DNA of 20,000 nucleotides, from positions 45,641 through 65,640 of the IMG/VR virus record IMGVR_UViG_3300030372_002239. The stretch is one strand, 5' to 3'. Position numbers and translations under genes: made by a program. Positions 2,195 to 17,297 of the stretch are shown here, one piece after another. Origin of the DNA: an uncultured virus (IMG/VR IMGVR_UViG_3300030372_002239). Lineage: Duplodnaviria; Heunggongvirae; Uroviricota; Caudoviricetes. The notes under the pieces were generated by a model. It made no database searches, was not told the origin of the DNA, and worked only from the letters and a program-made list of their open reading frames with translations. Positions within the stretch are counted from its first letter, which is position 1; the number at the start of each line of letters is the position of its first letter.

Positions 2195-2222
2195 TTTCAA
2201 AAAATATGACAGTTAATATATA

Positions 2223-2238
2223 AGCAACCTTCGTGCCA
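2223..2238 (-). promoter_or_regulatory. sigma54 (RpoN) -24/-12 promoter for the middle/DNA-metabolism operon
   Basis: Minus strand reads TGGCACGAAGGTTGCT, an exact fit to TGGCAC-N5-TTGCW; intergenic, correctly oriented, predicted start near 2212. Confidence 0.9.
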
Positions 2239-2260
2239 ACTTTTTTGGGGGTAGGTGATA

Positions 2261-2968
2261 TTAATAGATGATTAATTTACCCAATGTCTTGTAACGTGCA
2301 AGTATAGATTGTAGTTCTCTGTAGTTGCCGGTGAGTTTGGTTTGATCTAGGATTTGCAGCATCAATCCTTCGGGGTCTTCGACTTCTTGTTTCTTGAGGT
2401 AGAGAGTTATGTCGTCTGTTCTATCTCGGAGTGGTGATGTCTTGATGATGAAGGTTGATATGCGGTGATAGAGATCGAGTCTGAAATTTCCTACCTCGAC
2501 TTCTTTGCGTAAGTCTTTGTTGGTTGAGAACACGAAGCGACAAGTTGCATTGTGTTCCTCGGCTTCGCCTATGCGACTATACTTCTTGTGTTGAATGAAG
2601 CGTAGTAGCTTGGGTTGTAGGTGTAAGGGAAGTTCTCCGATCTCATCTAGGAATAACGTGCCTTTGTGCGCTCGCTGAACGAAACCAGTTGTGTCTCTGG
2701 TCGCTCCCGTGAATGAGCCTTTGAGGTGTCCGTAAAGAAGCGATTCAAACAAGTCTTCTTGGAGTGTAGTTACGTTTACAGGAACGAAGTTATTTTGTAT
2801 TTTGGCGTTCGATGCTGACTGCCTTTCTCCATGTAAGATTTGAGCGATAGTCTCCTTACCTGTGCCAGACTCCCCCATCACTAGGACGGGGGAATCGTGG
2901 CTGGACAGAATGTGTGCATGGTAGATTTGCTCTAGCATGAACTTGTCTTCTGTGATTAGTTCTTCCAT
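2261..2968 (-). CDS. sigma54-dependent transcriptional activator (bEBP), isolated AAA+ domain without receiver or HTH
   Basis: Walker A GESGTGKE, ESLLYGHLKGSFTGA (GAFTGA loop), Walker B LFLDEIGE, LQPKLLRF, STNKDL, R-finger FRLDLYHR, PLRDRTDDI, sensor II GNYRELQ. Confidence 0.95.
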   Translation of the reverse strand: MEELITEDKFMLEQIYHAHILSSHDSPVLVMGESGTGKETIAQILHGERQSASNAKIQNNFVPVNVTTLQEDLFESLLYGHLKGSFTGATRDTTGFVQRAHKGTLFLDEIGELPLHLQPKLLRFIQHKKYSRIGEAEEHNATCRFVFSTNKDLRKEVEVGNFRLDLYHRISTFIIKTSPLRDRTDDITLYLKKQEVEDPEGLMLQILDQTKLTGNYRELQSILARYKTLGKLIIY

Positions 2969-3150
2969 GTAACTTCTACGCCTTCTGCGTCTAATATGTC
3001 ATCCCACTTCCAATCTTGTGGGTGTTCGTGTACTTTAGGATTCCATTTGAACTTGAGATGTACTTCAACTGTATCTAACTCAGGCTCATCGTGCTGCGGA
3101 GGGTCTTGGTTCTCTCGCTGGCCCCATGCATCAAGCGACATTTGATTCAT
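2956..3150 (-). CDS. small acidic hypothetical protein, 64 aa
   Basis: Fills the gap between the DUF932 gene and the activator and overlaps both. Confidence 0.7.
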   Translation of the reverse strand: MNQMSLDAWGQRENQDPPQHDEPELDTVEVHLKFKWNPKVHEHPQDWKWDDILDAEGVEVTWKN

Positions 3151-3901
3151 CTTGTAAGAATTTGAGTACGCTACGATTGGTTCTTGCCACTAGCTCAAAA
3201 CTTTTATCCATCTCTGGTGTCAGGTTTTGCGTTACCGCATTGTATAGATTGTATACGTTACGGTCTTTATCTTGCGAGTATGTAGGATTGCGCCATATAT
3301 CCAAGATGTCCTTGCCTCGCCTTTCACCAATCTTCTTACCCTCGACCAGCTTCTCGATGATTGATTCGCCCTTTTGTTGAGTGATCTTAAAACCGTGCAA
3401 GACTCTGTAGCCTTCAACTGATGCGTCAAACTCACGCTTGGCTGAGTTGATTGAATCGTTGATATAGTCCAAGTCTAGGTTCATTGAATGTCTACCTGAC
3501 TGCTTGGTATTCATGCATGGTGAAGTCATACCGTTAGTGCAAACAAGACGTAATGCCCCTGCATCTATTGGTATACCAGAAGAACCATCGTATGAATTGC
3601 GTAACGTGACGCGCATTCCGATGATGTCTCCCTTTGCTACTTCAGCACGTTGTTCTTTGAAGTCATAGACTGCATAAAGTCTTGCCCCATTGTTGGGACA
3701 ATAGATTTTCCTCTGAAACTCACCGAGTTTCAGACAGGATTCAACTCTGTCTATTACTTCTTTATGATGAACTATCTTGTACTTATCTGAAACAAGAGCA
3801 AGATGCTCACCTGTGTCCTCGCGAAAGTTCTCGCGATGTCCTTCGATTACTTGTCCTCGTATGTTTAATACGGGACGACTCTTTACATTGAACTCATACA
3901 T
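3131..3901 (-). CDS. DUF932-family phage/plasmid protein
   Basis: Motifs 'REDTGEHLALVSDKYKIVHH', 'LRNSYDGS', 'RLVCTNG', 'SGRH' and 'VYNLYNAVT' characteristic of DUF932. Confidence 0.85.
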   Translation of the reverse strand: MYEFNVKSRPVLNIRGQVIEGHRENFREDTGEHLALVSDKYKIVHHKEVIDRVESCLKLGEFQRKIYCPNNGARLYAVYDFKEQRAEVAKGDIIGMRVTLRNSYDGSSGIPIDAGALRLVCTNGMTSPCMNTKQSGRHSMNLDLDYINDSINSAKREFDASVEGYRVLHGFKITQQKGESIIEKLVEGKKIGERRGKDILDIWRNPTYSQDKDRNVYNLYNAVTQNLTPEMDKSFELVARTNRSVLKFLQDESNVA

Positions 3902-4119
3902 TGTTCGATTAGTTTTACTTGGTTTTGTGTTAATGCTTTATCGAATTGATAAAACAAAAATTTGTTATCACTTGTACAACATTCTGCTGTACCTGTCTGA
4001 TAGATTTCGTCGATTGTTTGGTCTTCATCGGATATTACAATGAGTCCGATTTCATTTTGTAGCATATCAACGTCACTTCGCTCAAGATGATTTACTTGCC
4101 AGATGTAAGTGTGTGCCAT
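3883..4119 (-). CDS. hypothetical protein
   Basis: ORF track 3883..4143; ATG at 4119 (MAHTYIWQ) gives a shorter overlap with the upstream gene. Start uncertain. Confidence 0.65.
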   Translation of the reverse strand: MAHTYIWQVNHLERSDVDMLQNEIGLIVISDEDQTIDEIYQTGTAECCTSDNKFLFYQFDKALTQNQVKLIEQCMSSM

Positions 4120-4625
4120 GTTGGTTTCTCTCTTCGTGTCCATCGTGCGAATGGTTTGTCTAGTTGTATGTACAGCCTGTATTTTTCTACTATTGCTAGG
4201 TCATCAAAGTTTGGTTGCTTGCGACAGTTCATGTCCTTCGCTATGGCTACAGCGAACTCGGTTCTTGATCCGATAGGTGCGTAAGAATCTTTTAGGTTCT
4301 CGTAGCACCAAGCAATGAAGTCGAGAGTGTAATGGTCTTTACCCCAGCGGTATCGACGTTCTTCACCCATCTCAATGGCATGACTTATCAGCCAGCTCAT
4401 GTTGTCGCGAGTCTTGAATGTCCATTGTGTGCATGGATGGTAGCGATAGCTATGTACTCTCGGACGGCCTAGTGCATTGCGAGGACAGTCGTCTGCTGCG
4501 AGTCTGGATAAAGGAAAACCGTTGGCCAGCATTTGTGCTGACTCAACGATCATCTTGTTTATATGTTTGTCGCAGAGATTACGCGCTGCAACAATTGGGT
4601 TATCATCAGTTACAAAGATGTTCAT
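4092..4625 (-). CDS. pyrimidine-dimer DNA glycosylase / endonuclease V-like phage protein
   Basis: Starts 'MNIFVTDDNPIVAARNLCDKHINKMIVESAQML', followed by 'HPCTQW' and a C-terminal 'YRLY...KPFARWTRREKPTW', typical of this phage family. Start placed at ATG 4625 rather than 4703. Confidence 0.8.
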   Translation of the reverse strand: MNIFVTDDNPIVAARNLCDKHINKMIVESAQMLANGFPLSRLAADDCPRNALGRPRVHSYRYHPCTQWTFKTRDNMSWLISHAIEMGEERRYRWGKDHYTLDFIAWCYENLKDSYAPIGSRTEFAVAIAKDMNCRKQPNFDDLAIVEKYRLYIQLDKPFARWTRREKPTWHTLTSGK

Positions 4626-4797
4626 CGTGACAAGCCTCGTTAAACTTGAGTATCTTTTGTCCACAACTCTCACATTCTTTATGTTGCAGACCTGTTCCAA
4701 CACAATCAGTACATTTTTGACATAATTCTGCTACGATTAAGTAGCCTTTGCCTTCGCATAATTCGCAAAGATCAACAACTCTTTTTGTGTAGCTCAT
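4606..4797 (-). CDS. small Cys-rich zinc-finger protein (DnaJ-type CxxCxGxG repeats)
   Basis: CELCEGKG, CTDCVGTG and CESCG motifs in 63 aa; coupled to neighbours. Confidence 0.7.
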   Translation of the reverse strand: MSYTKRVVDLCELCEGKGYLIVAELCQKCTDCVGTGLQHKECESCGQKILKFNEACHDEHLCN

Positions 4798-4925
4798 CGT
4801 TTCTTTGGTTTTGTACGGTTCGTTGATTTAGTTCTGCTTGAATTGGCAGGACGGCTACTTGTGTGGGTAAGTTTACCAGTTTTCATCGACCGCTCTTGCC
4901 TTCGACTATAAGGTTTGTATTTCAT
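4794..4925 (-). CDS. 43-aa highly basic peptide (not in ORF track)
   Basis: MKYKPYSRRQERSMKTGKLTHTSSRPANSSRTKSTNRTKPKKR; ATGA overlaps at both ends (4922-4925, 4794-4797). Confidence 0.65.
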   Translation of the reverse strand: MKYKPYSRRQERSMKTGKLTHTSSRPANSSRTKSTNRTKPKKR

Positions 4926-5104
4926 CGTTTTCGTGTCTTTGCTTTGATGATGCAACGTGTCAATTTTCCGTTCCAGCTATCTTGGCGTAAGGATTGATTA
5001 GGATTTTCAGTAACGCTCGGACTATCCAGTTTAGTCCAGTTTCTTGCTCTGTCTGGTATGTCTACCAGTTCGACGTTTCCGTTAACTATTGTTCTTGCTT
5101 TCAT
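4922..5104 (-). CDS. hypothetical protein, 60 aa
   Basis: Part of the contiguous overlapping minus-strand gene chain. Confidence 0.65.
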   Translation of the reverse strand: MKARTIVNGNVELVDIPDRARNWTKLDSPSVTENPNQSLRQDSWNGKLTRCIIKAKTRKR

Positions 5105-5396
5105 TAAACTTTAAGTAGTTTGGTGATCTATGAAATAGGTTGTGTACCCAATTTGCTGACTGTCTGTCTAGGTAATGTTCGTTACCTTGGATAGAGTAGT
5201 CTGGCGGGAATAGTATCTCCGTGTCTGGTAGGTCGCAATGGACGAGATGTTCTTTGTGGTATTCATGCCAGTCAGGATGTTTTTGTAGATTCTCAGGCCC
5301 GTATCCATACAAGTTGCATTCATGCAACGCGCTGATAGCCATTAGACGGGAACGGCTCGGATGTTTGAGTGCTACGGTCAAAGATGTATTGTTCAT
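5082..5396 (-). CDS. hypothetical protein, 104 aa
   Basis: Only ORF covering this interval on the operon strand; overlaps both neighbours. Confidence 0.6.
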   Translation of the reverse strand: MNNTSLTVALKHPSRSRLMAISALHECNLYGYGPENLQKHPDWHEYHKEHLVHCDLPDTEILFPPDYSIQGNEHYLDRQSANWVHNLFHRSPNYLKFNESKNNS

Positions 5397-5664
5397 GTTT
5401 CTTTTGGTATAAGCATTTCTGGATGTTTAACGTGTTTAGTAATCCGTTCAGTCTCTCGCGAGTTGTCATTGTGGGCCAGCCACAAAGTGAAATGTGGAGC
5501 GAGTTTACTGTCTGTTCTGCGATGCAATGCCCATGCAAGTAGAGTTGCGTGACATTGTCGTCAGGGAATCGCAGGTCTTTTTTGACTTCGACGCGAGTGT
5601 TGTCACGACTGAAGTTCTTGCCTTGTTTGAATGCGCGTGCAGCGTCTTGTGTTATTTTTCTCAT
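5320..5664 (-). CDS. conserved-type phage hypothetical protein, 114 aa
   Basis: 'MRKIT...NTRV...LYLHGHCIA...GWPTMTTRERLNGLL' resembles a pattern I recall from many phage early proteins; ATGA overlap with the upstream gene. Confidence 0.75.
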   Translation of the reverse strand: MRKITQDAARAFKQGKNFSRDNTRVEVKKDLRFPDDNVTQLYLHGHCIAEQTVNSLHISLCGWPTMTTRERLNGLLNTLNIQKCLYQKKHEQYIFDRSTQTSEPFPSNGYQRVA

Positions 5665-6038
5665 TTGTTGTTTTTGTAGTTTTTGTAGTCTTTATTTAAG
5701 GGGTGATTGATTACCCAGTCGTACAGTTCTTTGTTGTCGTTGTAGAGGTCGGATAGAATGCCAGAGTAAAGTGTCTTTACTGGCGAACTGATCTTGATCT
5801 TGAACTTATTGCTGAATGTATATTCGGGTTGTGACTCAGATGCCTTGCTAGAGAAGCCGCCTTGGCATCTGCGAATGCTGGTTGATATTTTACCATCGCC
5901 CCAAATGTCTTTGCCTAGTGCGGCTTGTAGTGAGAGAGCGCGACTTAATTCTCTCATAAGAGACTCGCGTTCTTCGCTTTGTTTACTTATCTTTTGGGAT
6001 AGTGCTTCCATTTTAGTTATGGATTCAGACATTTTCAT
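5661..6038 (-). CDS. hypothetical protein with N-terminal coiled coil, about 125 aa
   Basis: ORF in operon chain; heptad-like E/K/L/S N-terminus. Confidence 0.7.
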   Translation of the reverse strand: MKMSESITKMEALSQKISKQSEERESLMRELSRALSLQAALGKDIWGDGKISTSIRRCQGGFSSKASESQPEYTFSNKFKIKISSPVKTLYSGILSDLYNDNKELYDWVINHPLNKDYKNYKNNK

Positions 6039-6303
6039 GTAGAGTATTTGTTAAAGTTGTGTAAGTTGTGAGAGAGTAGCGTTCACCTGCGAGATTAGTT
6101 AAGCAGGATTCGCAAGGTTCTTTTGAGAAGTCGTCTGTCTTGTCTCCGGTCATTAAGTAACCATGCTTGGCTAGTTTATCGAGACCGTTATTTATTTCGG
6201 TGTATCTTGTTTGGGCCTCGTCTCCTTGGTAGTGGTAGTCGAGGGATGAAGCATCGCCGGTCGCGTTAAGCGTGTGGCAGTCTTGGCAGATTGTGAATTT
6301 CAT
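6025..6303 (-). CDS. hypothetical zinc-binding protein, 92 aa
   Basis: Two CxxC pairs (CQDC; FSKEPCESC...LAGER). Confidence 0.75.
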   Translation of the reverse strand: MKFTICQDCHTLNATGDASSLDYHYQGDEAQTRYTEINNGLDKLAKHGYLMTGDKTDDFSKEPCESCLTNLAGERYSLTTYTTLTNTLHENV

Positions 6304-6308
6304 GTGAG

Positions 6309-6332
6309 AAAAAAGGGGGGATTGCTCCCCCC
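6309..6332 (-). terminator. intrinsic terminator / attenuator
   Basis: Minus strand GGGGGGA-GCAA-TCCCCCC-TTTTTT just after the stop at 6340. Confidence 0.85.
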
Positions 6333-6339
6333 ATTGAAG

Positions 6340-6930
6340 TTAGGCGAATAGTGCATCTGCCTCGACATCGAGTGCATCAATCTTGGCTTGGATTGTCGCT
6401 GCCTTTTCAGCAGATTTTTCCTTGCGATGTTTAGCCTCAAGGGTGCGACGTTCCGCGAAGATTTCTTGCATCCGTTGGGCGCGAGTCTCGGAGGCTTCTA
6501 GCTTCTTGGTGAGTGCTGCTTTTCCGTCTGACTTTGTACGCTCCTTGAATGCATCCCCGTCAAGTGCTTGCGCAATGTTGGAGAGTTTCTCATCGTCGGT
6601 GTAAGAGTCTGTTCGCTTGCCGTCTATTGATTTCTTTTGGGCGGTTTTGTATTTGCCGTTATTGAGACGGTAGAAACAAGCGTCTTTTATCCATGAGTCG
6701 GCATCGTTGTCTAGGACTCCAGCTTCGTTTAGTGCCGTGATCCAATCGCGGATGTCGTTCAAGTCGTTGGTAGACTCGGAGCCTGTCTCATGCGCCCAGT
6801 ATTTGAAGGGGCCATCTTGTCCCTTGGTTGATTCAAGGAGAGTCAAGTCAAGGTTCGCGAGTGTTTCGTCGTTGTTAACCAAGGCGAGTTGGGCCTTGCC
6901 GTTTTCGTTTGTTATGATTTTGGTTTTCAT
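6340..6930 (-). CDS. early hypothetical protein, 196 aa, C-terminal coiled coil
   Basis: ATG at 6930 (MKTKIIT...); the longer start in the ORF track (6978) is the TTG of the -35 box. Confidence 0.85.
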   Translation of the reverse strand: MKTKIITNENGKAQLALVNNDETLANLDLTLLESTKGQDGPFKYWAHETGSESTNDLNDIRDWITALNEAGVLDNDADSWIKDACFYRLNNGKYKTAQKKSIDGKRTDSYTDDEKLSNIAQALDGDAFKERTKSDGKAALTKKLEASETRAQRMQEIFAERRTLEAKHRKEKSAEKAATIQAKIDALDVEADALFA

Positions 6931-6950
6931 AATAGCCCGAAGGCGAGACA

Positions 6951-6978
6951 AGACTAGCAGAGGGGGGAGGGGTGTCAA
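6951..6978 (-). promoter_or_regulatory. sigma70-like early promoter
   Basis: TTGACA (6978-6973), 16-nt spacer ending TGC, TAGTCT (6956-6951); short leader with a C-TTCG-G hairpin before ATG 6930. Confidence 0.75.
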
Positions 6979-7040
6979 CCCTTATATGAGATTTAATGAA
7001 AAAAATATTTTTTGTATATATTGATATGCTCATGGTTGTA

Positions 7041-7194
7041 TTGATTATTAAATTTATTTATTTAGATTAATCAACGGGTGGTATGCCCCCTTCTAGTAGT
7101 CTATATATATAAAGATATCTATATTTTTTTTCTATTCTGTCAACGTGTAAAGGGGGGTAGTTGATTAATCTAAATAAATAAATTTAATAATCAA
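7041..7194. repeat. perfect 35-bp AT-rich inverted repeat with 84-bp spacer; candidate origin or protein-binding hub
   Basis: 7041-7075 TTGATTATTAAATTTATTTATTTAGATTAATCAAC is the exact reverse complement of 7160-7194. Confidence 0.9.
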
Positions 7195-7228
7195 CCTTTG
7201 CCCCGTTTATTTACATTAACTAGATAAG

Positions 7229-7250
7229 AAAAAACCCCCTTGCGGGGGTT
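7229..7250 (-). terminator. intrinsic terminator
   Basis: Minus strand AACCCCC-GCAA-GGGGGTT-TTTT directly after the stop at 7256. Confidence 0.85.
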
Positions 7251-7255
7251 GTCGT

Positions 7256-7504
7256 TTATTTTTCCGGTTTGTTGAATTTCTCCTCTTCAACGTAGGCAAC
7301 GTCGGCCTTGTCGAGTTTACCTTCAAGGTAACGAATTCGCATTCTGTATTCGTTGATTTCGACTTCGTGCTTTTCGTGTACTTCGTCCCACGCTTTTTGG
7401 ATTTCATCCATTTCCCATTTAGTTGGGGCGATGTCTTCAATCAGTCGTTTGATGCCGTCAGCAATTTCGACTTTGTTCTTTAGATTATTGATGTAGTAAT
7501 TCAT
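7256..7504 (-). CDS. early acidic hypothetical protein, 82 aa
   Basis: ATG start, bounded by hairpin/terminator elements; helical, E/K-rich. Confidence 0.8.
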   Translation of the reverse strand: MNYYINNLKNKVEIADGIKRLIEDIAPTKWEMDEIQKAWDEVHEKHEVEINEYRMRIRYLEGKLDKADVAYVEEEKFNKPEK

Positions 7505-7507
7505 AAG

Positions 7508-7528
7508 AAAAAAGGGGCTTGCACCCTC
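7508..7528 (-). terminator. weak terminator-like hairpin / attenuator
   Basis: Minus strand GGGT-GCAA-GCCC-C-TTTTTT, 3 nt before ATG 7504. Confidence 0.5.
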
Positions 7529-7531
7529 ATG

Positions 7532-7735
7532 TTATGCTTCAATTGATACGCTGATGTCTCCGTCGTTTACCATGTCGCGAACCGTATCGCGTATTTCTGC
7601 GCGCCGGTCGTCTTCATTTGGTTGTGAACTGATTTCATCAACTTTTTTCTCAATTGCCTTTTGTATTATCATGGTCATTTCCGTGACAAAGTAATCGGCA
7701 AGCCCTTCAATTTGTTCTTTAGTGTTTTTGTTCAT
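7532..7735 (-). CDS. early acidic hypothetical protein, 67 aa
   Basis: ATG at 7735 (MNKNTKEQ...); the upstream extension in the ORF track runs through the promoter. Confidence 0.8.
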   Translation of the reverse strand: MNKNTKEQIEGLADYFVTEMTMIIQKAIEKKVDEISSQPNEDDRRAEIRDTVRDMVNDGDISVSIEA

Positions 7736-7758
7736 ATTTAGTGCCATGCGGCAAAGAC

Positions 7759-7786
7759 AGGTTGACATAAACAACAAATTTGTCAA
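7759..7786 (-). promoter_or_regulatory. sigma70-like early promoter (degenerate -10)
   Basis: TTGACA (7786-7781), 16-nt spacer ending TGT, CAACCT (7764-7759), then GTC and a TGCC-GCAT-GGCA hairpin before ATG 7735; same layout as the promoters at 6978 and 8163. Contains a GTTGACA-N13-TGTCAAC dyad. Confidence 0.55.
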
Positions 7787-7843
7787 CACTTTATGAAAGA
7801 AAAAATCTCATGTAAAATGCATTTATGGGTTGCGTTTCTCTGG

Positions 7844-7939: not shown

Positions 7940-7965
7940 TATATTTTTTATTTTCGTCTCAGTAG

Positions 7966-7990
7966 AAAAGGCAGGGGCCGAAGCCCCCAC
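7966..7990 (-). terminator. intrinsic terminator
   Basis: Minus strand GTGGGGGC-TTCG-GCCCCTGC-C-TTTT after the stop at 7996. Confidence 0.75.
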
Positions 7991-7995
7991 CAATG

Positions 7996-8115
7996 TTATG
8001 ACCTGTTACGTTTAAGCAACTTCTGGACTGCTCTGCGCATGATGTCTGTTTGGCGTGGATTGCGTGGAAACAGAAACTTGCGCCCTGCGTATTTCATCAT
8101 TAGACGTTTTCTCAT
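7996..8115 (-). CDS. 39-aa basic early peptide
   Basis: MRKRLMMKYAGRKFLFPRNPRQTDIMRRAVQKLLKRNRS; has its own promoter, leader hairpin and terminator. Confidence 0.7.
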   Translation of the reverse strand: MRKRLMMKYAGRKFLFPRNPRQTDIMRRAVQKLLKRNRS

Positions 8116-8135
8116 AATAACCCGAAGGCAGGGAC

Positions 8136-8163
8136 AGAGTATCAACCATCCATAACAAGTCAA
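8136..8163 (-). promoter_or_regulatory. sigma70-like early promoter
   Basis: TTGACT (8163-8158), 16-nt spacer ending TGA, TACTCT (8141-8136); leader GTCCCTGCCTTCGGGTTATT-ATG is nearly identical to the leader at 6931-6950. Confidence 0.75.
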
Positions 8164-8186
8164 GATAAAAATAAAAAATAAATTGG

Positions 8187-8214
8187 TTGACACAATTCTT
8201 GATTCTGGTACTTT
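8187..8214 (+). promoter_or_regulatory. sigma70-like early promoter, back-to-back with the 8163 promoter
   Basis: TTGACA (8187-8192), 16-nt spacer ending TGG, TACTTT (8209-8214); A-rich UP-like tract upstream; GCGGT-AAT-ACCGC hairpin before ATG 8241. Confidence 0.75.
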
Positions 8215-8240
8215 GGGGGTGCGGTAATACCGCAAATGTT

Positions 8241-8544: not shown

Positions 8545-8552
8545 GTGCCTAG

Positions 8553-8581
8553 AGGGGGAGGGGATCAAAGGGGGAGGGGGG
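8553..8581 (+). repeat. direct repeat AGGGGGAGGGG x2 (four G-tracts)
   Basis: GGGGG-A-GGGG-ATCAAA-GGGGG-A-GGGGGG; copies start at 8553 and 8569. Confidence 0.8.
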
Positions 8582-8674
8582 CCAGAAGTCGTGCCGCTAC
8601 TGGACTATAACCTCCTCTGAAAAAATGACCCAAAAAACACTATGAGACAAAACATACTTTATCTTATAAAATTC

Positions 8675-8690
8675 TGGCACGAACTCTGCT
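8675..8690 (+). promoter_or_regulatory. sigma54 (RpoN) -24/-12 promoter for the late operon
   Basis: TGGCACGAACTCTGCT (one mismatch to TGGCAC-N5-TTGCW, GG-N10-GC spacing exact); intergenic, upstream of the morphogenesis genes; predicted start near 8701. Confidence 0.85.
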
Positions 8691-8780: not shown

Positions 8781-11700
8781 ATGCCTACCGAGTCTAACAT
8801 TGTTCAAGAGTTTGCTGATGGGCCAACTCCTGACACCGTTGACGCATTTGGCAAAGTAGCTGAAGGCCCACTCATAAAGTACAATCCCGGTGGTTTCGCC
8901 CAATTCCGGGCTGAGACAACTGGATTACCACCTGCTCGCGCTCAATTCGGCGACCAAGAGTTTTGGGGTCAACTCGTCACACCCACAACCACAAAACTAG
9001 ACACAGAACCAACAGGCCCAACAGGCCCAACAGATTTAGATGGCACAGGATTATCGAACGACCAAATAGACGCGATAGTAAAAGAAAGTGATGATGCAAA
9101 TAAAGAACTTGAAGATTGGTATCGCAGATCAAGTAGTGATGACCTAGTAGATTTTGATAAGTACCGACTCGACATACCAGACCCAAAAATCAACTGGGAC
9201 ACCAGCGATATTGGCTACACCGGCTACGATTACAGAAAAGACCCCGATTTCTTATCTGGAGACCTAATCAGCGCAGACCGCAATTTTGAGCCGATACAGA
9301 TTCCTCTTGGCCCCGGTGGTGGAGGCCCGATAGGACTTGCACCAAGGACACCGCAACCAAAGCAGGATCGTCCAAGAATTTCGATTACGCCAAAAGGAAT
9401 ACCAAAACCAGAAAAAGATTTACCACCAGTAAAAGGAACTTCAAAAAATACAACAGGAATATTTAAGCCAACGCTAGGAGATAAAGCGGCACAAACATTA
9501 CAAGACATATTCTCTGCAACAGAAAAGCCAGCAAGAATACTTTTTGGTAAAACACGTTATGACGCAGAAGGCCCATTACGCAAAGATGAACGTCAGACAT
9601 TTGACACACTCAAAAAGTTCAAAGATTGGTCAGATGGTTTAACTGAAGAACAATTCAAGCTATGGGAGACTAAAGGTATACCGTCAGAAACAACAGGACG
9701 CGCACCTGTTGGCCCGAAATATGGCAAGATGCTGGCTGACTTTGGTCGCATCCTCAAGAACGAAGAAAACATACGCACACAAGAATATGGCGACCTTCAG
9801 CTACTTGCTGCATTAAACACGGCAGCCTTAATCAGTCAGTATGGTGCAATCGGTGGTGCAATCCCCGTTTTAATCACAGCCTCAGACGACATTATGTCAG
9901 GCATGAACAATATGTTCGCCAAGAGTCCTGAACTAGCAGGAAACCCAATACAAGACTTTGTGCATGGTACAACATGGGTACTCGGCAAAACCTTACAAAA
10001 AACTTACAACAACACAATCGGCCAAGTCTTACCCAAGATCAAAGATACACGGATAAAGGACAAGCTAGGAAACATCGACGAGTTTATGAAAGCACCTCGT
10101 CGTCCTACAATGGGCACAAAAGCCGTAATCTCAATGCCCGATCCCGATGGCACAATAAGAACAGACCGAAACATAAGCAAAGGGATACCAGAAGCAGAGC
10201 GGCAACAAGTTACAGCGCAAACCACATCAACAGTAACAGACCCAGCGACAGCGACAGCTAGACCAATAAGTGTCCGAAACATAGGCAGAGGTGTACCAAC
10301 AGGGGCAACAACAAGACTAACTGGTGATACACCTGTCTCACAAACAACAAGCACACTACCAAAAGTCGAAACTTCTGAAACACTTACAGCCAATATAACA
10401 GATAAAGATAAACAAAAGATTGATGATGGAACAACAGTAACAGAGCAAAAGCCTACAGGCATAACAATCGTAGACGTAGATGACTTTGAATCAAAAGACC
10501 AAGACAAAGATATAGAAACAGCAGACCTAGACTTACGCTACGAGCAACCAGTCGAAACTAAAATTGTAGACCCGATAGTAGTAAGTCCAAAAGGTAAGGA
10601 GAAAAAAGATGAAATAAAAACTGAAAAAAATCAGAAACTAAAAACTCCTAAAACTCAACCAGATTTAGTTGACGCTAAATCAATAAAAGTAAAAGAAGGT
10701 GATAAAAAACCAGACCCAAAAATTAAAGGACTTAAAATAGAAAAAGTTGATGGTGTTGTTTCAAACGAAGACAAAGAAGACAAAAAAGACGTAAAAGAAG
10801 CTGACTTAAATTTAGAGTATAAAAAACTAGATGAGTCTGAACTCGATAAAATAAAGTCAAATATAGAGAAAGAACAAAAACAACGCGAAGAACAAAAACG
10901 CGAAGAAGAACGTAAACAACAGGAGGGTAAAAAGTCTAAAGACAAACCAAAATTCACAATAGATGTTGAAGAAGTAGAACCTACAACAGACCCTCCGGTA
11001 ACTGAGTTACCATTTATGCCAGAAATTGTTGCTCCCGAGGTAGACGAAGATGCAAAGCTAGATGATCCACCAGAGGAACAGCCAGACGATGAACTCGAAT
11101 ATACACCAGAAACAGGCGTAGAAGCTCCCGATGGTTTATATTACAGCACTTATTATAATGTTCCCGTTGATGCTGACGGCAATCCTTTTGGAACTTCTGG
11201 TTGGGATGAAAGTCGATACGAAGGAAAAACACTTCCGGTATTAAATATGGCATTTGGACTTGATCCTAATAATCCCGAAATTGGTGGTAAAGTAGGCGAA
11301 AAACCAAGCGGGAAAGAAATGGATTGGAATGCCAGAATGCAAGATTTTAGAGACAGGAACGCTTTGTCTGAAAATGTAGGATCAAGAACTAACTATGAAG
11401 TTGATTTTGGAGATGTAGATCCAACAATCGGCGGTGGAGGTTCGGTAAAGATAGACATGGAAGAAAATCCATACGGATTAAATAATCCGGATTTTCCCGG
11501 TCAAGGCTACAACGAAGACCCAAGCACATACCAAAGAATCGCAGATTCACAAACAGGTGTAAGATGGGACGCTAGTATAAATGATTTTGTTCCGTGGAAT
11601 CCAGATTTACCAGAGTCTAATAATCCCGACAATCCACAGTATTGGGGGCCAGAACGCGACATTCCTCAAGGCGGGGGCGAGGCTACTGGCGGGCAAAAAG

Positions 11701-11939
11701 TATGGACAAAACCTGAAGTAGCAGACCACGCAAGAAATACGGGACAGTTAACGCCAGAAAGAATAACGTGGGTAAATACAGAAACAAATGAAATACATAC
11801 TGAAACTGTAACTCCATACGTTTATCGAGACGGTTTTGGTTGGGCTTATGATTATGATACAAGTCCACCATTTTGGTTACAAGGTAACTGGCGAACATTC
11901 GATGCGCCAGTAGGAGGGAGTATTGATTTAGGTGAGTAG
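8781..11939 (+). CDS. large low-complexity protein of unknown function, 1052 aa (possible virion/ejection protein)
   Basis: 3.1-kb ORF with P/T/K/E/D-rich blocks and one hydrophobic stretch; function is inference only. Confidence 0.8.
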   Translation: MPTESNIVQEFADGPTPDTVDAFGKVAEGPLIKYNPGGFAQFRAETTGLPPARAQFGDQEFWGQLVTPTTTKLDTEPTGPTGPTDLDGTGLSNDQIDAIVKESDDANKELEDWYRRSSSDDLVDFDKYRLDIPDPKINWDTSDIGYTGYDYRKDPDFLSGDLISADRNFEPIQIPLGPGGGGPIGLAPRTPQPKQDRPRISITPKGIPKPEKDLPPVKGTSKNTTGIFKPTLGDKAAQTLQDIFSATEKPARILFGKTRYDAEGPLRKDERQTFDTLKKFKDWSDGLTEEQFKLWETKGIPSETTGRAPVGPKYGKMLADFGRILKNEENIRTQEYGDLQLLAALNTAALISQYGAIGGAIPVLITASDDIMSGMNNMFAKSPELAGNPIQDFVHGTTWVLGKTLQKTYNNTIGQVLPKIKDTRIKDKLGNIDEFMKAPRRPTMGTKAVISMPDPDGTIRTDRNISKGIPEAERQQVTAQTTSTVTDPATATARPISVRNIGRGVPTGATTRLTGDTPVSQTTSTLPKVETSETLTANITDKDKQKIDDGTTVTEQKPTGITIVDVDDFESKDQDKDIETADLDLRYEQPVETKIVDPIVVSPKGKEKKDEIKTEKNQKLKTPKTQPDLVDAKSIKVKEGDKKPDPKIKGLKIEKVDGVVSNEDKEDKKDVKEADLNLEYKKLDESELDKIKSNIEKEQKQREEQKREEERKQQEGKKSKDKPKFTIDVEEVEPTTDPPVTELPFMPEIVAPEVDEDAKLDDPPEEQPDDELEYTPETGVEAPDGLYYSTYYNVPVDADGNPFGTSGWDESRYEGKTLPVLNMAFGLDPNNPEIGGKVGEKPSGKEMDWNARMQDFRDRNALSENVGSRTNYEVDFGDVDPTIGGGGSVKIDMEENPYGLNNPDFPGQGYNEDPSTYQRIADSQTGVRWDASINDFVPWNPDLPESNNPDNPQYWGPERDIPQGGGEATGGQKVWTKPEVADHARNTGQLTPERITWVNTETNEIHTETVTPYVYRDGFGWAYDYDTSPPFWLQGNWRTFDAPVGGSIDLGE

Positions 11940-12288
11940 TCATCAAGTAGTTAGATTAGCGAAGGAAGGTTTCTCGGTTGAAGAAATTGTAGAAGACCTT
12001 GGGTATGAGCGTGAGAACGTCGAGTTAATCCTAGCAGGAAATAAGAAAGCTAAAGATACTCCGCTTGCCAAAAAATTTGAAGAACTGGAAGACACGGCAC
12101 TAGACGTAGTTCGTGTTGCGCTACAAACAGGAACAGCGAATGCTCCTGCGCTGAAAGCTGCTTTCTACGTTCTTGACCAGAGGCAGGGACTCAAGACACC
12201 TCATGGTACAACTAACGTGAACATATCAGATTTTAACCTCCGACTAGAAAAAGCGCGAGAGGTTATGAATAAAGCCATAGAAGTATGA
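11932..12288 (+). CDS. probable terminase small subunit
   Basis: N-terminal HTH-like segment (RLAKEGFSVEEIVEDLGY), helical core, 'TNVNI' C-terminal strand; size and position upstream of TerL. Confidence 0.6.
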   Translation: MSSHQVVRLAKEGFSVEEIVEDLGYERENVELILAGNKKAKDTPLAKKFEELEDTALDVVRVALQTGTANAPALKAAFYVLDQRQGLKTPHGTTNVNISDFNLRLEKAREVMNKAIEV

Positions 12289-12503
12289 CAGTAAAAAATG
12301 GACGGCTATTCGCCGTAAAGAACAAGAGCCGAAAATTCGGTGCTACAAACAAATACGTATTCACGTACCTTGAAGACAGTAACGGTGACAACGAGTTACC
12401 TTACTTATTCACGCCAAGCCAGTTACGAGTCGCACGAAAACGTGCTGAAGATAATCCAGAAGACTTGCTCGAAAAAAACTTGTTAACTGACTGGTTTGAT
12501 TAA
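12285..12503 (+). CDS. hypothetical protein, 72 aa
   Basis: ATGA overlap upstream and TAATG overlap downstream. Confidence 0.8.
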   Translation: MTVKNGRLFAVKNKSRKFGATNKYVFTYLEDSNGDNELPYLFTPSQLRVARKRAEDNPEDLLEKNLLTDWFD

Positions 12504-12859
12504 TGGAACTATACAATTATAAAGCAGAAGTTACCAGAGTTGTTGACGGTGATACTGTTGACGCTTTTATTGATCTTGGTTTTGATATGCATTCAAAGCA
12601 GCGTGTACGTCTTTACGGTATTAACGCACCGGAGACGCGAACTCGCGACTTGATCGAGAAGAAGCATGGTAAAGCTGCGACGAGACGTTTGGTTGAGATG
12701 CTCAAGGAAAACAAAAACAAATGCATTATAAAAACGTCACTCGACAAGAAAGGTAAATACGGTCGTGTGTTAGGCACATTATTCATTGACGACAAAAACC
12801 TAAACGAGACTCTGGTAGAAGAAGGTTACGCAGAAACCTACCATGGAGAAAAGCGGTAA
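12503..12859 (+). CDS. thermonuclease (staphylococcal nuclease-like, SNase)
   Basis: 'RVVDGDT', 'RVRLYGINAPE', 'GKYGRVLG', 'LNETLVEEGYA'. Confidence 0.92.
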   Translation: MELYNYKAEVTRVVDGDTVDAFIDLGFDMHSKQRVRLYGINAPETRTRDLIEKKHGKAATRRLVEMLKENKNKCIIKTSLDKKGKYGRVLGTLFIDDKNLNETLVEEGYAETYHGEKR

Positions 12860-14345
12860 CATACAATTTAAAGACCCTTACGAGATGTTGACCGTTATTG
12901 ACGACGACATCTTGGAGGGACGCATTTCTCTACACAAATGGCAGCGTGAAATCCTAGAGGATTACGGCAAGCCATCAAATGCCAGTAAACCATTCAAGGC
13001 CGCAGTAAGAGCGGCGAATGGTTCTGGTAAAGATCAATTTGTTATAGCCCCTTGCGCCTTATGGACTTGCATGGCATCAGCTAATGCAGTCTCGATAGTC
13101 ACAACTGCATCTGGTAATCAGCTAGATCGCCAAACAGACAAGTACATCAAGCAGTTAATGAACACCATTAACAAGATGTTTGGCACACAAGTCTGGAAGA
13201 TGAACTATCGTCATTACACCAACTTACTAAATGGCTCAACAATCGAGCTATTCGTAACGGACGAGGCTGGTAGAGCAGAGGGTTGGCATCCGGTAGTTCC
13301 CGGCGGGGAACTAGCAATATTTGTCTCGGAGGCCAAGTCAGTACCCGACGAGATATTTACAGCGTTGGCTCGTTGCACGGGCTTTACTAAACGAGTGGAC
13401 GTATCTAGTCCCGGCCCACCTTCCGGTCACTTCTACAATATGTGTACTGGAGGTAACTGGAAGCAATATCATGTCACAGCTTTCGACTGCCCCCATCTAT
13501 CAGAAGAATACATTGCTGAAATCAAAGACTCGTATGGAGAAACCTCTGCTTTATACAAGTCTATGATAATGGCTGAGTTTGGTGGTATGGACGAGCAAGT
13601 CGTAATAAATCACCAGAAACTTGTAGACTTGGACAAACACGAAATAGAACATCTAGAAGAAGAATACAACGTAGCTGGCCTTGATTTATCAGCAGGAGGT
13701 GACGAGCAAGTTCTAGTAATCCGAAACGGTAACAAAACGCTTGCAGTCGAAGCCTTCAACTTTCGAGACACAGTCGCCCTAATAAATCACCTAGAACACT
13801 TATTCAGAAAATACAAACTAGACCACGAACAATCAATAATCTACGGTGATGCAGGAGGTTTAGGCAAACCTATACTCGACCAACTAAAAGCTAACTGGAA
13901 CGTCACCTACGTCTTAAACCAAGCAAAGCCATACAACAATCTAGCCTACTTAAATCGCGGTGCAGAACTCTGGTTCAGCGTGGGCAAGTTAATAGAATAC
14001 GGAGAGATCATGGTTCCTAGAGAATCAAAGCTCCGCAAACAACTAGCATCTCGCTACTTCGTAGTGACACCGCAAAATAAACTACAACTTGAAAGTAAGA
14101 AACAGGCACGATCAAAGGGTCATGTATCGCCTGACAGAGCAGATGCTTTCGTACTTGCGTTCGCAGACTATCGTGGTATCAAGCCCAAGAAGTTGCGTAA
14201 AAAACGCACAGAAAAATTTACACCAAAACAATTTAATTTAACATCAAACAGACAAAGAGCGGTATTCGGCTTTAACGTAAGATCGAATCCGTGGTTACAA
14301 GATGAAATACAACAACTACAAGAATTATCAAGAGGCCGCAACTAA
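12843..14345 (+). CDS. terL: terminase large subunit
   Basis: Adenine-binding 'WQ', Walker A 'AANGSGKD', Walker B-like 'IFVSEA', coupling motif 'SSP', nuclease 'GLDLSAGGD' and 'SPDRADA'. Confidence 0.92.
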   Translation: MEKSGNIQFKDPYEMLTVIDDDILEGRISLHKWQREILEDYGKPSNASKPFKAAVRAANGSGKDQFVIAPCALWTCMASANAVSIVTTASGNQLDRQTDKYIKQLMNTINKMFGTQVWKMNYRHYTNLLNGSTIELFVTDEAGRAEGWHPVVPGGELAIFVSEAKSVPDEIFTALARCTGFTKRVDVSSPGPPSGHFYNMCTGGNWKQYHVTAFDCPHLSEEYIAEIKDSYGETSALYKSMIMAEFGGMDEQVVINHQKLVDLDKHEIEHLEEEYNVAGLDLSAGGDEQVLVIRNGNKTLAVEAFNFRDTVALINHLEHLFRKYKLDHEQSIIYGDAGGLGKPILDQLKANWNVTYVLNQAKPYNNLAYLNRGAELWFSVGKLIEYGEIMVPRESKLRKQLASRYFVVTPQNKLQLESKKQARSKGHVSPDRADAFVLAFADYRGIKPKKLRKKRTEKFTPKQFNLTSNRQRAVFGFNVRSNPWLQDEIQQLQELSRGRN

Positions 14346-16050
14346 CATACACAAGTTAGTCGGTATATGTGATGCCCAAAGTGTTCGTGCCAACGACCAA
14401 CGTCAGCAACGTCGTCTTAACGTCGATCTCGATTTAGAACGTCGCGATGGCTATCTAGCACCGGATGAGATTTATATACCAACGCACATCATCGACACAA
14501 ATATTCGTCGTGAGCAAGCCAAGTATGTTTCGTACATCGTAAACTCAAGACGCACAGCGATCTTTTCAAGCTCGACAGACCCAGCGTTTAACACCGGCCC
14601 ACTAGAGCGAGACTTTACAGAACGCTCACGTTACGACGGTTGGCAGATACCATTATTCCGAGTCATAGACTGTATGCAGTTGCATGGCTACTGTATTGCA
14701 GAAGTAGAATTCGATGACACGAAGCCCGGTCATTTTGGAATAGAATCTGTAAACTACGAGGACATTGCATTTCCAGATGACACTCGCGACATACAAGCGT
14801 GTGGTATGCTAGTTCATCGACATTACTTTACTCGTGAGCAACTGTTGGACATGGTTAAGACACGAGACTTTAGCAAATCGGAAGTCGAGGCTTTAGTAGG
14901 CGAGCCTGTTGACGAGCAGACGGAATCCTTGTTTAAGATTGAGAAGGTCATGTTTAGAAGCAAGGGGATAGTTCAAGTGGGGTGGTCTTGCGCAGCTAGA
15001 TGCAACGACTGGTTGCGCAAGCCACGTCCCCTCTTTTTGGGCAAGCGAGACGCAGAAGGAGAAATCTACGAGACAGAATATCCATACGTCGTATTCCATT
15101 ACACAATAGCAGAGGACATGACTATCAAGAATTCTGTTGGTCGTGCCTTCCTAGATAAGCACACACAAGAAGCAGTTAGTTCAATGATGTCATCGTTTGT
15201 GACTGCACATCGTCGTGCATCTAACTTTTACTTTGCCAAAGACTCTGATGATCCGAATCAAAGCAACGAGCAAACAAATGTACAGTTTGTTCCCGGCGCA
15301 CTAATAGATTCAAACGTCAGACAATTCCAACTGTCACCACCTAATGCACAGATGTTATCAGCGATACAAACATTGATAACACAGAATGCACAGGAGCAAT
15401 CTCAGATGAACTATGCTGCAATGAATCGACAAGATTCACGCAAAACAGCAACAGAGATTCAGACAGCAACCGCTGAAGCACAAATGTTATCGGCAACACA
15501 AGTTGCATTATTTAGCATCGCCATCAAACGCATCTACGAAAAGTGTTTCGACATATATAACTCTCGCGTTCTTGACGGTTTAATTGAACCAAACATCTCA
15601 CTAGAATACTTTACTGACCACAAGTACAACATGAAACCAGCGGGTGACACCGATGTTGTAGAGCGACAGGAGAAAGCGTCAAAGATGCTGCAAGTTTGGC
15701 CGGTAATTCAACAGAACAGCGCACTCGCAATAGACTACATGAAGGATATGCTGAGTATGCTATTCCCTGACGAAGCTCCAAAATACATCAACATGATGCA
15801 AGAAGATACGGCTCGCGCTCAGTTGATCCAGCAGATGATGACGATAATTCAGAGTCTAGTCACAGACCCACAAACAGGACAACTAAACCAAGAAGCACAA
15901 CCGTATGCCCAACAGCTACAACAATTACAACAACAAGTCCAAGCACTTTCGGGAGGCGACCAGAAAGGTGCTGGAGGAGCAAGCTCATCAGCAATGGCTG
16001 GACAACCCAACAACCAAGGTATTCCTCAACCTACTCAGGCAGGAGCGTGA
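14302..16050 (+). CDS. portal protein
   Basis: 582 aa directly after TerL; 'KTATEI' motif and Q-rich C-terminal barrel as in P22/podovirus-type portals. Confidence 0.85.
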   Translation: MKYNNYKNYQEAATNIHKLVGICDAQSVRANDQRQQRRLNVDLDLERRDGYLAPDEIYIPTHIIDTNIRREQAKYVSYIVNSRRTAIFSSSTDPAFNTGPLERDFTERSRYDGWQIPLFRVIDCMQLHGYCIAEVEFDDTKPGHFGIESVNYEDIAFPDDTRDIQACGMLVHRHYFTREQLLDMVKTRDFSKSEVEALVGEPVDEQTESLFKIEKVMFRSKGIVQVGWSCAARCNDWLRKPRPLFLGKRDAEGEIYETEYPYVVFHYTIAEDMTIKNSVGRAFLDKHTQEAVSSMMSSFVTAHRRASNFYFAKDSDDPNQSNEQTNVQFVPGALIDSNVRQFQLSPPNAQMLSAIQTLITQNAQEQSQMNYAAMNRQDSRKTATEIQTATAEAQMLSATQVALFSIAIKRIYEKCFDIYNSRVLDGLIEPNISLEYFTDHKYNMKPAGDTDVVERQEKASKMLQVWPVIQQNSALAIDYMKDMLSMLFPDEAPKYINMMQEDTARAQLIQQMMTIIQSLVTDPQTGQLNQEAQPYAQQLQQLQQQVQALSGGDQKGAGGASSSAMAGQPNNQGIPQPTQAGA

Positions 16051-16192
16051 ACGCTTGGTCAAAGATATAGAATATGTTGCGGTTAAGCGTGGAGTATCGG
16101 ACTCGGAAGTTCGTATTATTGCTGCACAATTAAAAACAACAGACGACATAATAGAAACCATAAATGACAGAAACAGATACAAAGGAAGTTGA
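15968..16192 (+). CDS. small helical protein between portal and scaffold
   Basis: ORF track 15905..16192; GTG at 15968 (…EEQAHQQWLDNPTTKVF) is a more plausible start. A small gene here is common in podovirus head modules. Confidence 0.65.
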   Translation: MLEEQAHQQWLDNPTTKVFLNLLRQERERLVKDIEYVAVKRGVSDSEVRIIAAQLKTTDDIIETINDRNRYKGS

Positions 16193-17276
16193 GTTCAACT
16201 TTGGCGACATTTCGGTAGGTGAAAGTCTTGAGCCAGAGCAACTTGAAGCGAAAGAACCAGAAGAACCTACTGAAGAAACACCAGAGGAATCACCAGAGGA
16301 AACTACAGAGGAATCTAGTGAAGAATCTACAGAAGACTCGTCTGAAGAATCTAATGAAGAACCTAACGAAGATTCAACCGAAGATTCAACCGAAGAATCT
16401 AGTGAAGAACTATCGACTGAAGATATTCTTGGTGACCCGCTAGAGGAAAAAGAAGAAAAGTCTGATGGACGAAGTTACGAAGGTTTTGACGATGAAGATA
16501 AACAATATGCAAAGCAGATGTCTAACAATGCGTATGAACACTTCTCGAAAAAACTCAAGGAACTAAAAACCAAGAAAGACGCAGCAGAAGAAACGCAGGA
16601 TTTAATGTCTCATCCAGAGGCGTACACGTTAAATCCAGAGTATCAAGAACTTGTCACCGATTACGATAAAGCATCGCAAGAACAGGCGCATTGGAAGCGT
16701 CAGCTTGTTGCTATTCGTAACGGAGATTCTTGGCGATCAATTGAAGGCTACGATAAAAACGGTAAACTTGTACTTGGCAAAGAAGAATACAAGCCAACTG
16801 GAGAGTCTGAAATTGATGTGCAATCTGCGCTGACAGAAGCTCAAACATTAAGTAAAAGCTACAGCAAACGTGCGCACGACATCCAGAAAAATCACACGAA
16901 AGACTACAAAGAGTCTACTGATATGCTGGAAGAAGAACAGCGTAAACAGTTCAAGTGGCTACAAGATAAGGAGATGGGCAAAAAAGTTATCGACATACCT
17001 AATCTCGGAAAAACCTCGATAAATAAGCTCAGAAAGACGTTTGGCGAAGCTATTCCCAAAGTATTCACAAACCATCCTATGTCAGAACTTGCCACGAATC
17101 TTTGGGTAATGAACCAGATTCTTGCTAAACAACAGCATGAATTAACTCAAAAGATCAAGAAGCAGAACACAAACAAGAAAGATATGCTTCGCGGAGAACC
17201 CAAAGCAACAACATCTGGTGTAGAAGACGACGACATAATTTCTATTTCAGACGGCATGGCAGACTATTTCTCATAA
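16164..17276 (+). CDS. capsid scaffolding protein
   Basis: Very acidic repetitive N-terminus, coiled-coil core, located between portal and capsid genes. Confidence 0.75.
   Translation: MTETDTKEVEFNFGDISVGESLEPEQLEAKEPEEPTEETPEESPEETTEESSEESTEDSSEESNEEPNEDSTEDSTEESSEELSTEDILGDPLEEKEEKSDGRSYEGFDDEDKQYAKQMSNNAYEHFSKKLKELKTKKDAAEETQDLMSHPEAYTLNPEYQELVTDYDKASQEQAHWKRQLVAIRNGDSWRSIEGYDKNGKLVLGKEEYKPTGESEIDVQSALTEAQTLSKSYSKRAHDIQKNHTKDYKESTDMLEEEQRKQFKWLQDKEMGKKVIDIPNLGKTSINKLRKTFGEAIPKVFTNHPMSELATNLWVMNQILAKQQHELTQKIKKQNTNKKDMLRGEPKATTSGVEDDDIISISDGMADYFS
16260..16427 (+). repeat. degenerate 12-bp tandem repeat encoding E-E/D-S/T/P-x tetrapeptides
   Basis: EEPT EETP EESP EETT EESS EEST EDSS EESN EEPN EDST EDST EESS; GAAGATTCAACC occurs twice in tandem. 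Confidence 0.8.
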
Positions 17277-17281
17277 AATAG

Positions 17282-17297
17282 TGGCACGAAGTTTGCT
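17282..17297 (+). promoter_or_regulatory. sigma54 (RpoN) -24/-12 promoter for the major capsid gene
   Basis: TGGCACGAAGTTTGCT, exact consensus, 5 nt after the scaffold stop; predicted start near 17308. Confidence 0.92.

Follow-up and report, generated by a model that had tools for sequence, protein, structure and literature searches.

Which RNA polymerase expresses the later genes of a phage that encodes an activator of an alternative host sigma factor? The question is raised by a 20,000-nucleotide stretch of DNA (here called the window) that forms the final 20 kb of the 65,640-bp IMG/VR record IMGVR_UViG_3300030372_002239, an uncultured marine virus of the class Caudoviricetes. Promoters of the sigma-54 type are silent until an ATPase opens them, and the window holds both a gene for such an ATPase, a bacterial enhancer-binding protein (bEBP), and three boxes of the -24/-12 type, which we call P1, P2, and P3. 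A preliminary description of this DNA had proposed that the phage bEBP directs host sigma-54 to these phage promoters. That core idea is supported by an intact activator, the lack of an rpoN gene on the record, boxes close to consensus, and the conservation of gene and sites in related phages. From these features, we consider it probable that a phage of about 45 kb relies on the sigma-54 RNA polymerase of its host to transcribe all of its post-early genes.

Three boxes and one activator

The three boxes lie exactly where the preliminary description had placed them, on the same strands and with identical sequence (Table 1). All three are intergenic and correctly oriented, each directed at the next gene, and they have in common TGGCACGAA-N3-TGCT; the bacterial sigma-54 promoter consensus is given as TGGCAC-N5-TTGCT in PMC12316311. 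The shared 16-mer pattern TGGCACGAANNNTGCT, searched with up to two mismatches, has three matches in the window, all of them exact, against 0.44 expected, and three or more were found in none of 200 dinucleotide-preserving shuffles of the window. With TGGCAC-N5-TTGCW, two of the boxes match with 0 mismatches and the third with 1 (CTGCT). When the entire 65,640-bp record was scanned with the consensus, P1, P2, and P3 again had the three top scores (12, 12, and 11 of 12 specified positions), with the next site at 10. At two mismatches, TGGCAC-N5-TTGCW is not enriched in the window (16 found, 9.97 expected), and so only the near-exact window sites are meaningful. From box end to start codon the gaps are 28 nt for P1 (ATG 2194), 11 nt for P2 (ATG 8702), and 86 nt for P3 (ATG 17384); transcripts are predicted to start about 12 nt past the GC doublets (at 2224, 8689, and 17296), near 2212, ~8701, and ~17308, respectively.

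The hexamer TGGCAC occurs 16 times in the window where 8 are expected, a total reached in 0 of 200 shuffles. The other TGGCAC hexamers had been said to lack a proper -12 box, and indeed none of the remaining 13 of 16 has a correctly spaced TGC; the surplus of hexamers exceeds what three promoters account for. When the promoter regions were aligned, no shared upstream enhancer motif was apparent by eye, only an A-rich tract before the -24 element, which agrees with an activator that has no DNA-binding domain. An Rfam search of the window matched no RNA family.

The bEBP gene reported in the preliminary description is present and intact. Its 235-amino-acid (aa) product matches PF00158 over residues 5 to 175 (E 1.2e-53; 181.6 bits against a curated cut-off of 20.2) and carries all the expected motifs: Walker A (GESGTGKE), Walker B (LFLDEIGE), and the loop GSFTGA. 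The GAFTGA motif is the sigma-54 contact according to a recent preprint (bioRxiv 10.64898/2026.10.06.757011). Across an alignment of 22 short relatives, residues G35, K38, D108, and E109 are invariant, as are the conserved arginines and G84, T87, G88, and A89 of the loop, in which F86 is nearly invariant. Among solved structures, the protein comes nearest to the AAA+ cores of FleQ, NtrC1, and PspF (E 1e-35 to 1e-43; 35 to 47% identity), and the match in PHROGs is phrog_7998, annotated as “unknown function.”

The AAA+ domain starts at about residue 5, the C terminus lies about 20 residues past a GNYRE motif (GN(Y/V)RE in relatives), and none of the seven Pfam hits of the protein is a helix-turn-helix (HTH) family. 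By its sequence, then, the activator is an AAA+ core only, with neither an N-terminal sensor nor a C-terminal HTH or other DNA-binding domain. Without such a domain it must act from solution and not from an enhancer. The C-terminal HTH gives the bEBP family its name and is nonetheless dispensable for activation, since natural activators without it exist; PMC3844500 describes truncated bEBPs that, though missing the DNA-binding domain, still activate the holoenzyme from solution, with lower efficiency than enhancer-bound activators. No Sigma54_DBD domain (PF04552) was found in the record, in a search that was positive in 4 of 14 control genomes (E. coli, B. subtilis, Caulobacter, and Bacteroides). 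Any sigma-54 must therefore come from the host.

Conservation of the gene and its sites

Relatives of the activator are encoded on 325 viral contigs. We counted as a box any site with intact GG/GC and, unless stated otherwise, at most two mismatches. The activator loci compared (n = 73; L008, L010, and L035 to L105) do not include seven near-identical copies of the window (L004 to L007, L009, L011, and L012), and their activators are 41 to 99% identical to that of the window. A box lies within 60 nt past the activator stop at 58 of the 73 loci (52 at one mismatch or fewer), whereas random windows of the same loci contain one in 209 of 29,200 cases (78 of 29,200 at one mismatch or fewer). With activators clustered at 95% identity, 29 of 42 clusters keep the box. 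The box after the activator is thus common, not universal. Among 80 loci fetched by capsid homology (27 to 81% identity), a box lies no more than 300 nt upstream of the capsid homolog in 72 (47 at one mismatch or fewer); control windows at these loci, in which the true sites are included, have a box in 653 of 8,000 cases (273 of 8,000 at one mismatch or fewer).

Sites and gene also travel together at the level of whole genomes. Near-identical full-length records (G001 and G002) have all three sites. The three box positions are kept as well in G006, G007, and G008, in which the activators are 79%, 60%, and 44% identical and spacer and flanks differ. All five have the P2-equivalent box ahead of a homologous gene run and conserve a first P2 peptide of 30 to 34 aa. 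In four lineages the ATG of this first gene lies 11 to 13 nt past the box; G006 also has an earlier in-frame ATG at 2 nt. A start codon at the predicted P2 start suggests that the P2 message is leaderless or nearly so and lends the predicted start indirect support. Of 26 exact sites across eight genomes, 19 are intergenic with respect to the called open reading frames (ORFs), and 4 of the other 7 are P2 sites swallowed where the longest-ORF caller extends the small ORF upstream.

All 10 genomes picked by capsid homology alone carry the activator (E 1e-48 to 1e-61), including the five most distant capsid relatives (E 1e-51 to 1e-61). The complete 54-kb genomes G009 and G010, which have direct terminal repeats, share terminase, portal, capsid, polymerase, and activator at 27 to 42% identity and contain six and five exact boxes, respectively, and no match to the reversed pattern. 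In a clade without a box before the capsid gene, G011 has two further exact boxes, at 28887-28902 (+) and 29251-29266 (-), that face each other 364 bp apart, with equivalents in G012 and G014. In an unrooted FastTree phylogeny, for which the cellular sample was the best 80 of a longer list, 29 of 30 viral activators fall opposite the 80 cellular ones with a branch support of 97%. The outlier, IMG/VR locus L102, is a bacterial-type activator of 506 aa that clusters with a Bacteroidaceae gene.

TABLE 1 Coordinates and strands of promoters, genes, and terminators in the window
Feature	Position	Strand	Basis or remark
Leading P1 genes	163-2200	-	135-aa (probable ATG 2194) and 170-aa unknowns, 54-aa ORF
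PD-(D/E)XK exonuclease, behind P1	163-1068	-	Family match
P1 sigma-54 -24/-12 box	2223-2238	-	TGGCACGAAGGTTGCT; 22 nt past activator stop
Phage sigma-54 activator (bEBP), 235 aa, AAA+ core	2261-2968	-	PF00158
Intrinsic terminator	6315-6332	-	Just upstream of the 6303 to 2261 gene run
Sigma-70-like promoter, head of leftward arm	6951-6978	-	TTGACA-N16-TAGTCT
Intrinsic terminator	7233-7250	-	
Intrinsic terminator	7512-7528	-	
Intrinsic terminator	7970-7991	-	
Sigma-70-like promoter, second copy	8136-8163	-	TTGAC(A/T)-N16-TA(C/G)TCT pattern
Sigma-70-like promoter, rightward	8187-8214	+	Third in early region
P2 sigma-54 -24/-12 box	8675-8690	+	TGGCACGAACTCTGCT; ahead of rightward packaging/head genes
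Conserved 31-aa ORF, first P2 gene	8702-8797	+	ATG 11 nt past P2; 3' end overlaps start of 1052-aa gene
P2 gene run	8781-16050	+	1052-aa protein, two small ORFs, nuclease, terminase, 582-aa portal candidate
SNase-like nuclease	12503-12859	+	PF00565, E 1.3e-15
Large terminase (TerL)	12843-14345	+	phrog_2, E 2.5e-26
Portal candidate, 582 aa	14302-16050	+	Position only
Scaffold or protease candidate, 370 aa	16164-17276	+	Position only; neighbor of capsid gene in relatives too
P3 sigma-54 -24/-12 box	17282-17297	+	TGGCACGAAGTTTGCT; 5 nt past preceding stop, ahead of capsid gene
Major capsid protein, 467 aa, HK97 fold	17384-18787	+	AlphaFold2 model and Foldseek
Intrinsic terminator directly 3' of capsid gene	18797-18818 (also given as 18797-18828)	+	9-bp stem, 8 GC pairs, then T run

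Genome layout and early region

Record bases 1 to ~20,500 (loci L013 and L014) hold a second family A polymerase, a second terminase, a capsid gene of the SU10 type, and a truncated exonuclease. Colinearity with two independent records, of 43.6 and 45.5 kb, is confined to ~20.5 to 65.6 kb of the record, which by this comparison looks chimeric, with a first ~20 kb from another phage. The limit of colinearity implies that the real phage is ~45 kb and circularly permuted, and the stated completeness of 100% is misleading for a chimeric record. The foreign ~20 kb contains neither an activator nor a good sigma-54 box. In the phage part, a leftward arm runs from ~8160 down past the activator to the exonuclease and, beyond the window, the rest of the P1 unit: an AAA_24 ATPase, a family A DNA polymerase, and a DUF3987 primase/helicase-like protein. 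The rightward arm begins at P2. No tRNA genes were found in record bases 1 to 47,000, a scan that takes in the window up to position 1,360.

P2 had been placed ahead of the morphogenesis genes, and the PHROGs match of the large terminase bears this out. The 1052-aa and 582-aa proteins of the same run have no match in Pfam, PHROGs, PDB sequence searches, or the ESM Atlas, and the 370-aa protein that follows has no family match in Pfam or PHROGs. The gene behind P3 had been taken for the capsid gene. An AlphaFold2 model of its 467-aa product, built with 49 relatives, has a mean predicted local distance difference test score (pLDDT) of 79.3, and the top Foldseek matches of the model in the PDB are all phage capsid proteins (N4, Pan3, DEV, and T7; E ~1e-8, probability 1.00), which confirms the assignment. 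With a terminator right behind it, P3, capsid gene, and terminator make up one short unit. The tail genes beyond this terminator have no further sigma-54 box ahead of them, and so they would rely on terminator read-through.

The capsid mRNA leader (17298-17383) contains two copies of GCTTCT...AAGGGCAT, each forming a hairpin of 4 to 5 bp with the loop AGGGCA. The stems vary between copies and phages yet stay paired (GCCA/TGGC, GTGA/TCAC, and GGTA/TACC), and the motif is retained even in a clade without P3. The fold of the leader is no more stable than that of shuffles (z = 1.09). The hairpins may be a protein-binding or processing site.

The preliminary description had called the activator the last gene of a coupled early operon. 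The layout fits this in part: the minus-strand ORFs between 6303 and 2261 overlap or adjoin one another, with the activator last, and these genes are presumably “early.” A single early operon is not what the arm contains, however, with at least three sigma-70-like promoters and four terminators in the region (Table 1). Two related 36-nt stretches (6924-6959 and 8109-8144; 75% identical) each overlap the -10 element of their minus-strand promoter. A 641-nt metatranscriptome contig from a relative ~92% identical covers 6310-6944, from ~7 nt past the promoter -10 element to the T run of the terminator; its ends are a weak hint of a discrete early transcript, as contigs cannot prove ends. The largest early intergenic gap holds a perfect AT-rich inverted repeat of 35 bp (7041-7075/7160-7194), its arms 84 nt apart and bracketing a TTGACA box, which could be an origin or an operator. 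A G-rich 15-mer beginning GGGGGAGGGG occurs as a tandem pair at 8554-8584, between the early arm and P2, and once at 6963-6977, in a promoter spacer.

Host, transcripts, and cultured relatives

Two marine metatranscriptomes, RNA runs X1 and X2, contain about 5% of the sampled words and yielded nothing but short contigs, from which transcript starts cannot be read. No relative of the terminase was found in 185,579 species genomes. The closest cellular activators, at no more than 46% identity, come from many phyla; contigs of metagenome-assembled genomes with the best activator hits (Verrucomicrobiota, OM182, and others) were considered as hosts and set aside, having no other gene in common with the phage. 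Of the 46 genes of at least 80 codons (record 20.5 to 65.6 kb), no more than 10 are preceded by a Shine-Dalgarno-like word of even 4 nt, and the translation signals of the host may be unusual. Since this weak signal and the TTGACA early promoters point apart, we name no host.

Among 50,697 GenBank phage records, none gave a tblastn match to the capsid protein, and the best terminase match among GenBank phages is 32%, to Akkermansia phages. The activator matches 65 GenBank “phage” records, all of them bacterial-looking contigs or unannotated “Bacteriophage sp.” fragments; neither the activator nor the capsid protein has a relative in any isolated phage in GenBank.

A proposed early-to-late switch and its alternatives

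In the mechanism that we propose, host sigma-70 holoenzyme would start at the TTGAC(A/T)-N16-TAnnnT promoters of the leftward early arm, and transcription would pass leaky terminators to reach the last early gene, that of the 235-aa activator. The protein would be constitutively active, with the amount made as the sole control. Because it has no sensor and no DNA-binding domain, its concentration would be the switch, and there would be a single switch from early to late. The preliminary description had distinguished middle from late genes; nothing separates these classes, and the three promoters should fire together. Once accumulated, the activator would contact closed complexes of host sigma-54 holoenzyme from solution and open P1, P2, and P3, so that P1 would boost the replication and recombination genes directly past the activator gene, and P2 would start the rightward run of the small, probably leaderless ORF, the 1052-aa protein, the nuclease, the terminase, and the portal candidate. 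P3 would be a dedicated promoter of the capsid gene, closed by its own terminator, with read-through feeding the tail genes. Binding of the holoenzyme to the boxes, its activation by the 235-aa protein, the transcript starts, their timing, and an rpoN-positive host are what we infer.

Several observations weigh against this mechanism or limit it. The record is chimeric, yet its phage part is matched end to end by the two independent records. At 15 of the 73 activator loci no box follows within 60 nt, and the groups that keep it number 16 of 29 (80%) and 9 of 18 (60%). One clade, accounting for 8 of the 80 capsid loci, has no box ahead of the capsid gene despite keeping the activator. All five records of this clade retain the activator with an exact box shortly past it, so that only the capsid-proximal site has been lost. 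Hits with one mismatch in G011 to G015 are no commoner than those of a reversed control, and so only exact sites count. Within the early arm, the terminator just upstream of the activator run is followed by no promoter that we found, and the activator is reached either by read-through or from an unseen promoter. The 22 nt between the activator stop and P1 contain no terminator; early transcripts can therefore read into the replication genes, and their dependence on P1 is not obligatory. Finally, that the host possesses rpoN is assumed.

Three other explanations compete with the use of host sigma-54 on phage promoters. The activator might serve mainly in host takeover, turning on the host sigma-54 regulon (nitrogen uptake, motility, and stress) while the phage boxes are secondary or weak. 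A bEBP without a DNA-binding domain is promiscuous, and host promoters would be activated too; DctD250 was used to fire all sigma-54 promoters of Salmonella, according to PMC3844500. This leaves unexplained why conserved, near-consensus boxes stand before replication and capsid genes, even where capsid identity falls to 27%, and why these boxes are the three best sites of the record. We judge takeover unlikely as the main role, and see in it more an added effect than an alternative. It is harder still to credit that the boxes are read by some other factor (a phage DNA-binding protein, for instance) or serve as a packaging or replication signal, and resemble -24/-12 elements by coincidence. The boxes do share bases beyond the consensus, namely, GAA after TGGCAC and the upstream A-rich tract. 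What stays constant across lineages, however, are the contact bases of sigma-54, TGGCA(C/T) and (T/C)TGCT at 5-nt spacing, while spacer and flanks vary; the boxes always face the downstream gene, and in 10 of 10 genomes they are coinherited with a sigma-54 activator.

An artifact, with activator and boxes being bacterial DNA misassembled onto a phage or the “viral” contigs being bacterial, is the least credible of these and seems to us close to negligible. The first ~20 kb of the record is indeed chimeric, the L102 activator is of bacterial type, and all 65 matching GenBank “phage” records are bacterial-looking or unannotated metagenome contigs. Against this, the activator sits between phage genes in the independent colinear records of 43.6 and 45.5 kb and inside 54-kb genomes with direct terminal repeats, and it is the junk part of the record that has neither the gene nor the sites.

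Beyond the single phage, we offer tentatively the wider view that a family-level lineage of uncultured 43- to 55-kb phages runs all of its post-early genes on host sigma-54 through a gateless, enhancer-independent activator, as a fourth strategy of temporal control; it may well prove too broad. With no later gene needing sigma-70, such a phage could shut down sigma-70 fully with a small early protein without silencing itself, and its activator would in addition force on the host sigma-54 regulon. If the view holds, it would add a fourth general strategy of phage timing to phage polymerases, phage sigma factors or appropriators, and antiterminators.

The appeal of the arrangement is that ATPase-dependent silence makes sigma-54 promoters a tight off-to-on switch for which the virus needs only one small gene. 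If confirmed, it would be a new entry among phage gene-timing mechanisms and would indicate that neither a sensor nor a DNA-binding domain is needed for a natural activator to run a regulon. Activator and boxes together would be a genomic marker for an uncultured phage lineage, with hosts restricted to bacteria that have rpoN. The 235-aa activator and its 16-bp promoters also form a small orthogonal pair with possible use in synthetic biology.

Comparison with known systems

Bacterial sigma-54/bEBP systems (NtrC and glnAp2, PspF and pspA, and FleQ and the flagellar genes) have the same promoter architecture and the same AAA+ core with a GAFTGA-type loop. Unlike them, the system described here is phage encoded and would serve the virus, has neither a sensor nor a DNA-binding domain, and targets phage replication, packaging, and capsid genes. 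DNA-binding domains are also absent from Helicobacter pylori FlgR, Chlamydia CtcC, and the engineered DctD250 and PspF(1-275), which likewise reach sigma-54 holoenzyme from solution; in FlgR and CtcC, a receiver domain has been retained as a gate on activity. FlgR of H. pylori is named as a natural enhancer-independent activator in a title in the reference list of PMC3844500. Compared with FlgR and CtcC, the phage activator is without any gate, and it resembles engineered truncations (DctD250 and PspF(1-275)) more than the natural regulators that we checked.

Known temporal switches of phages include the RNA polymerases of T7 and N4, AsiA/MotA and gp55/gp33/gp45 of T4, the sigma cascade of SPO1, and antitermination by N and Q of lambda. 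As in these, an early product would redirect transcription to later gene classes. Here, however, there would be no phage polymerase, sigma factor, or antiterminator; instead, a phage ATPase would turn on an idle alternative sigma factor of the host. Late transcription of T4 has itself been likened to enhancer-dependent activation, in a review of T4 late genes (PMC2988020).

A search of the full-text literature, with most subscription journals outside its coverage, turned up no phage in which gene timing depends on a sigma-54 activator of its own, in keeping with the preliminary description, which knew of no characterized case. The nearest relative in the literature is Htm (Gp204) of the Mosigvirus AV110, which is likewise made early by the phage, has an AAA+ fold like that of bEBPs and lacks a DNA-binding domain, and is proposed to act on sigma-54 holoenzyme (bioRxiv 10.64898/2026.10.06.757011). 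As far as the accessible portion of that preprint goes, Htm differs in having no GAFTGA loop and an altered Walker B motif and in acting on host genes, and no phage sigma-54 promoters are reported there. The 235-aa activator, unlike Htm as so described, has all the motifs together with matching promoters on its own genome. It is a known molecular system in a new deployment, conserved across a large lineage of uncultured phages.

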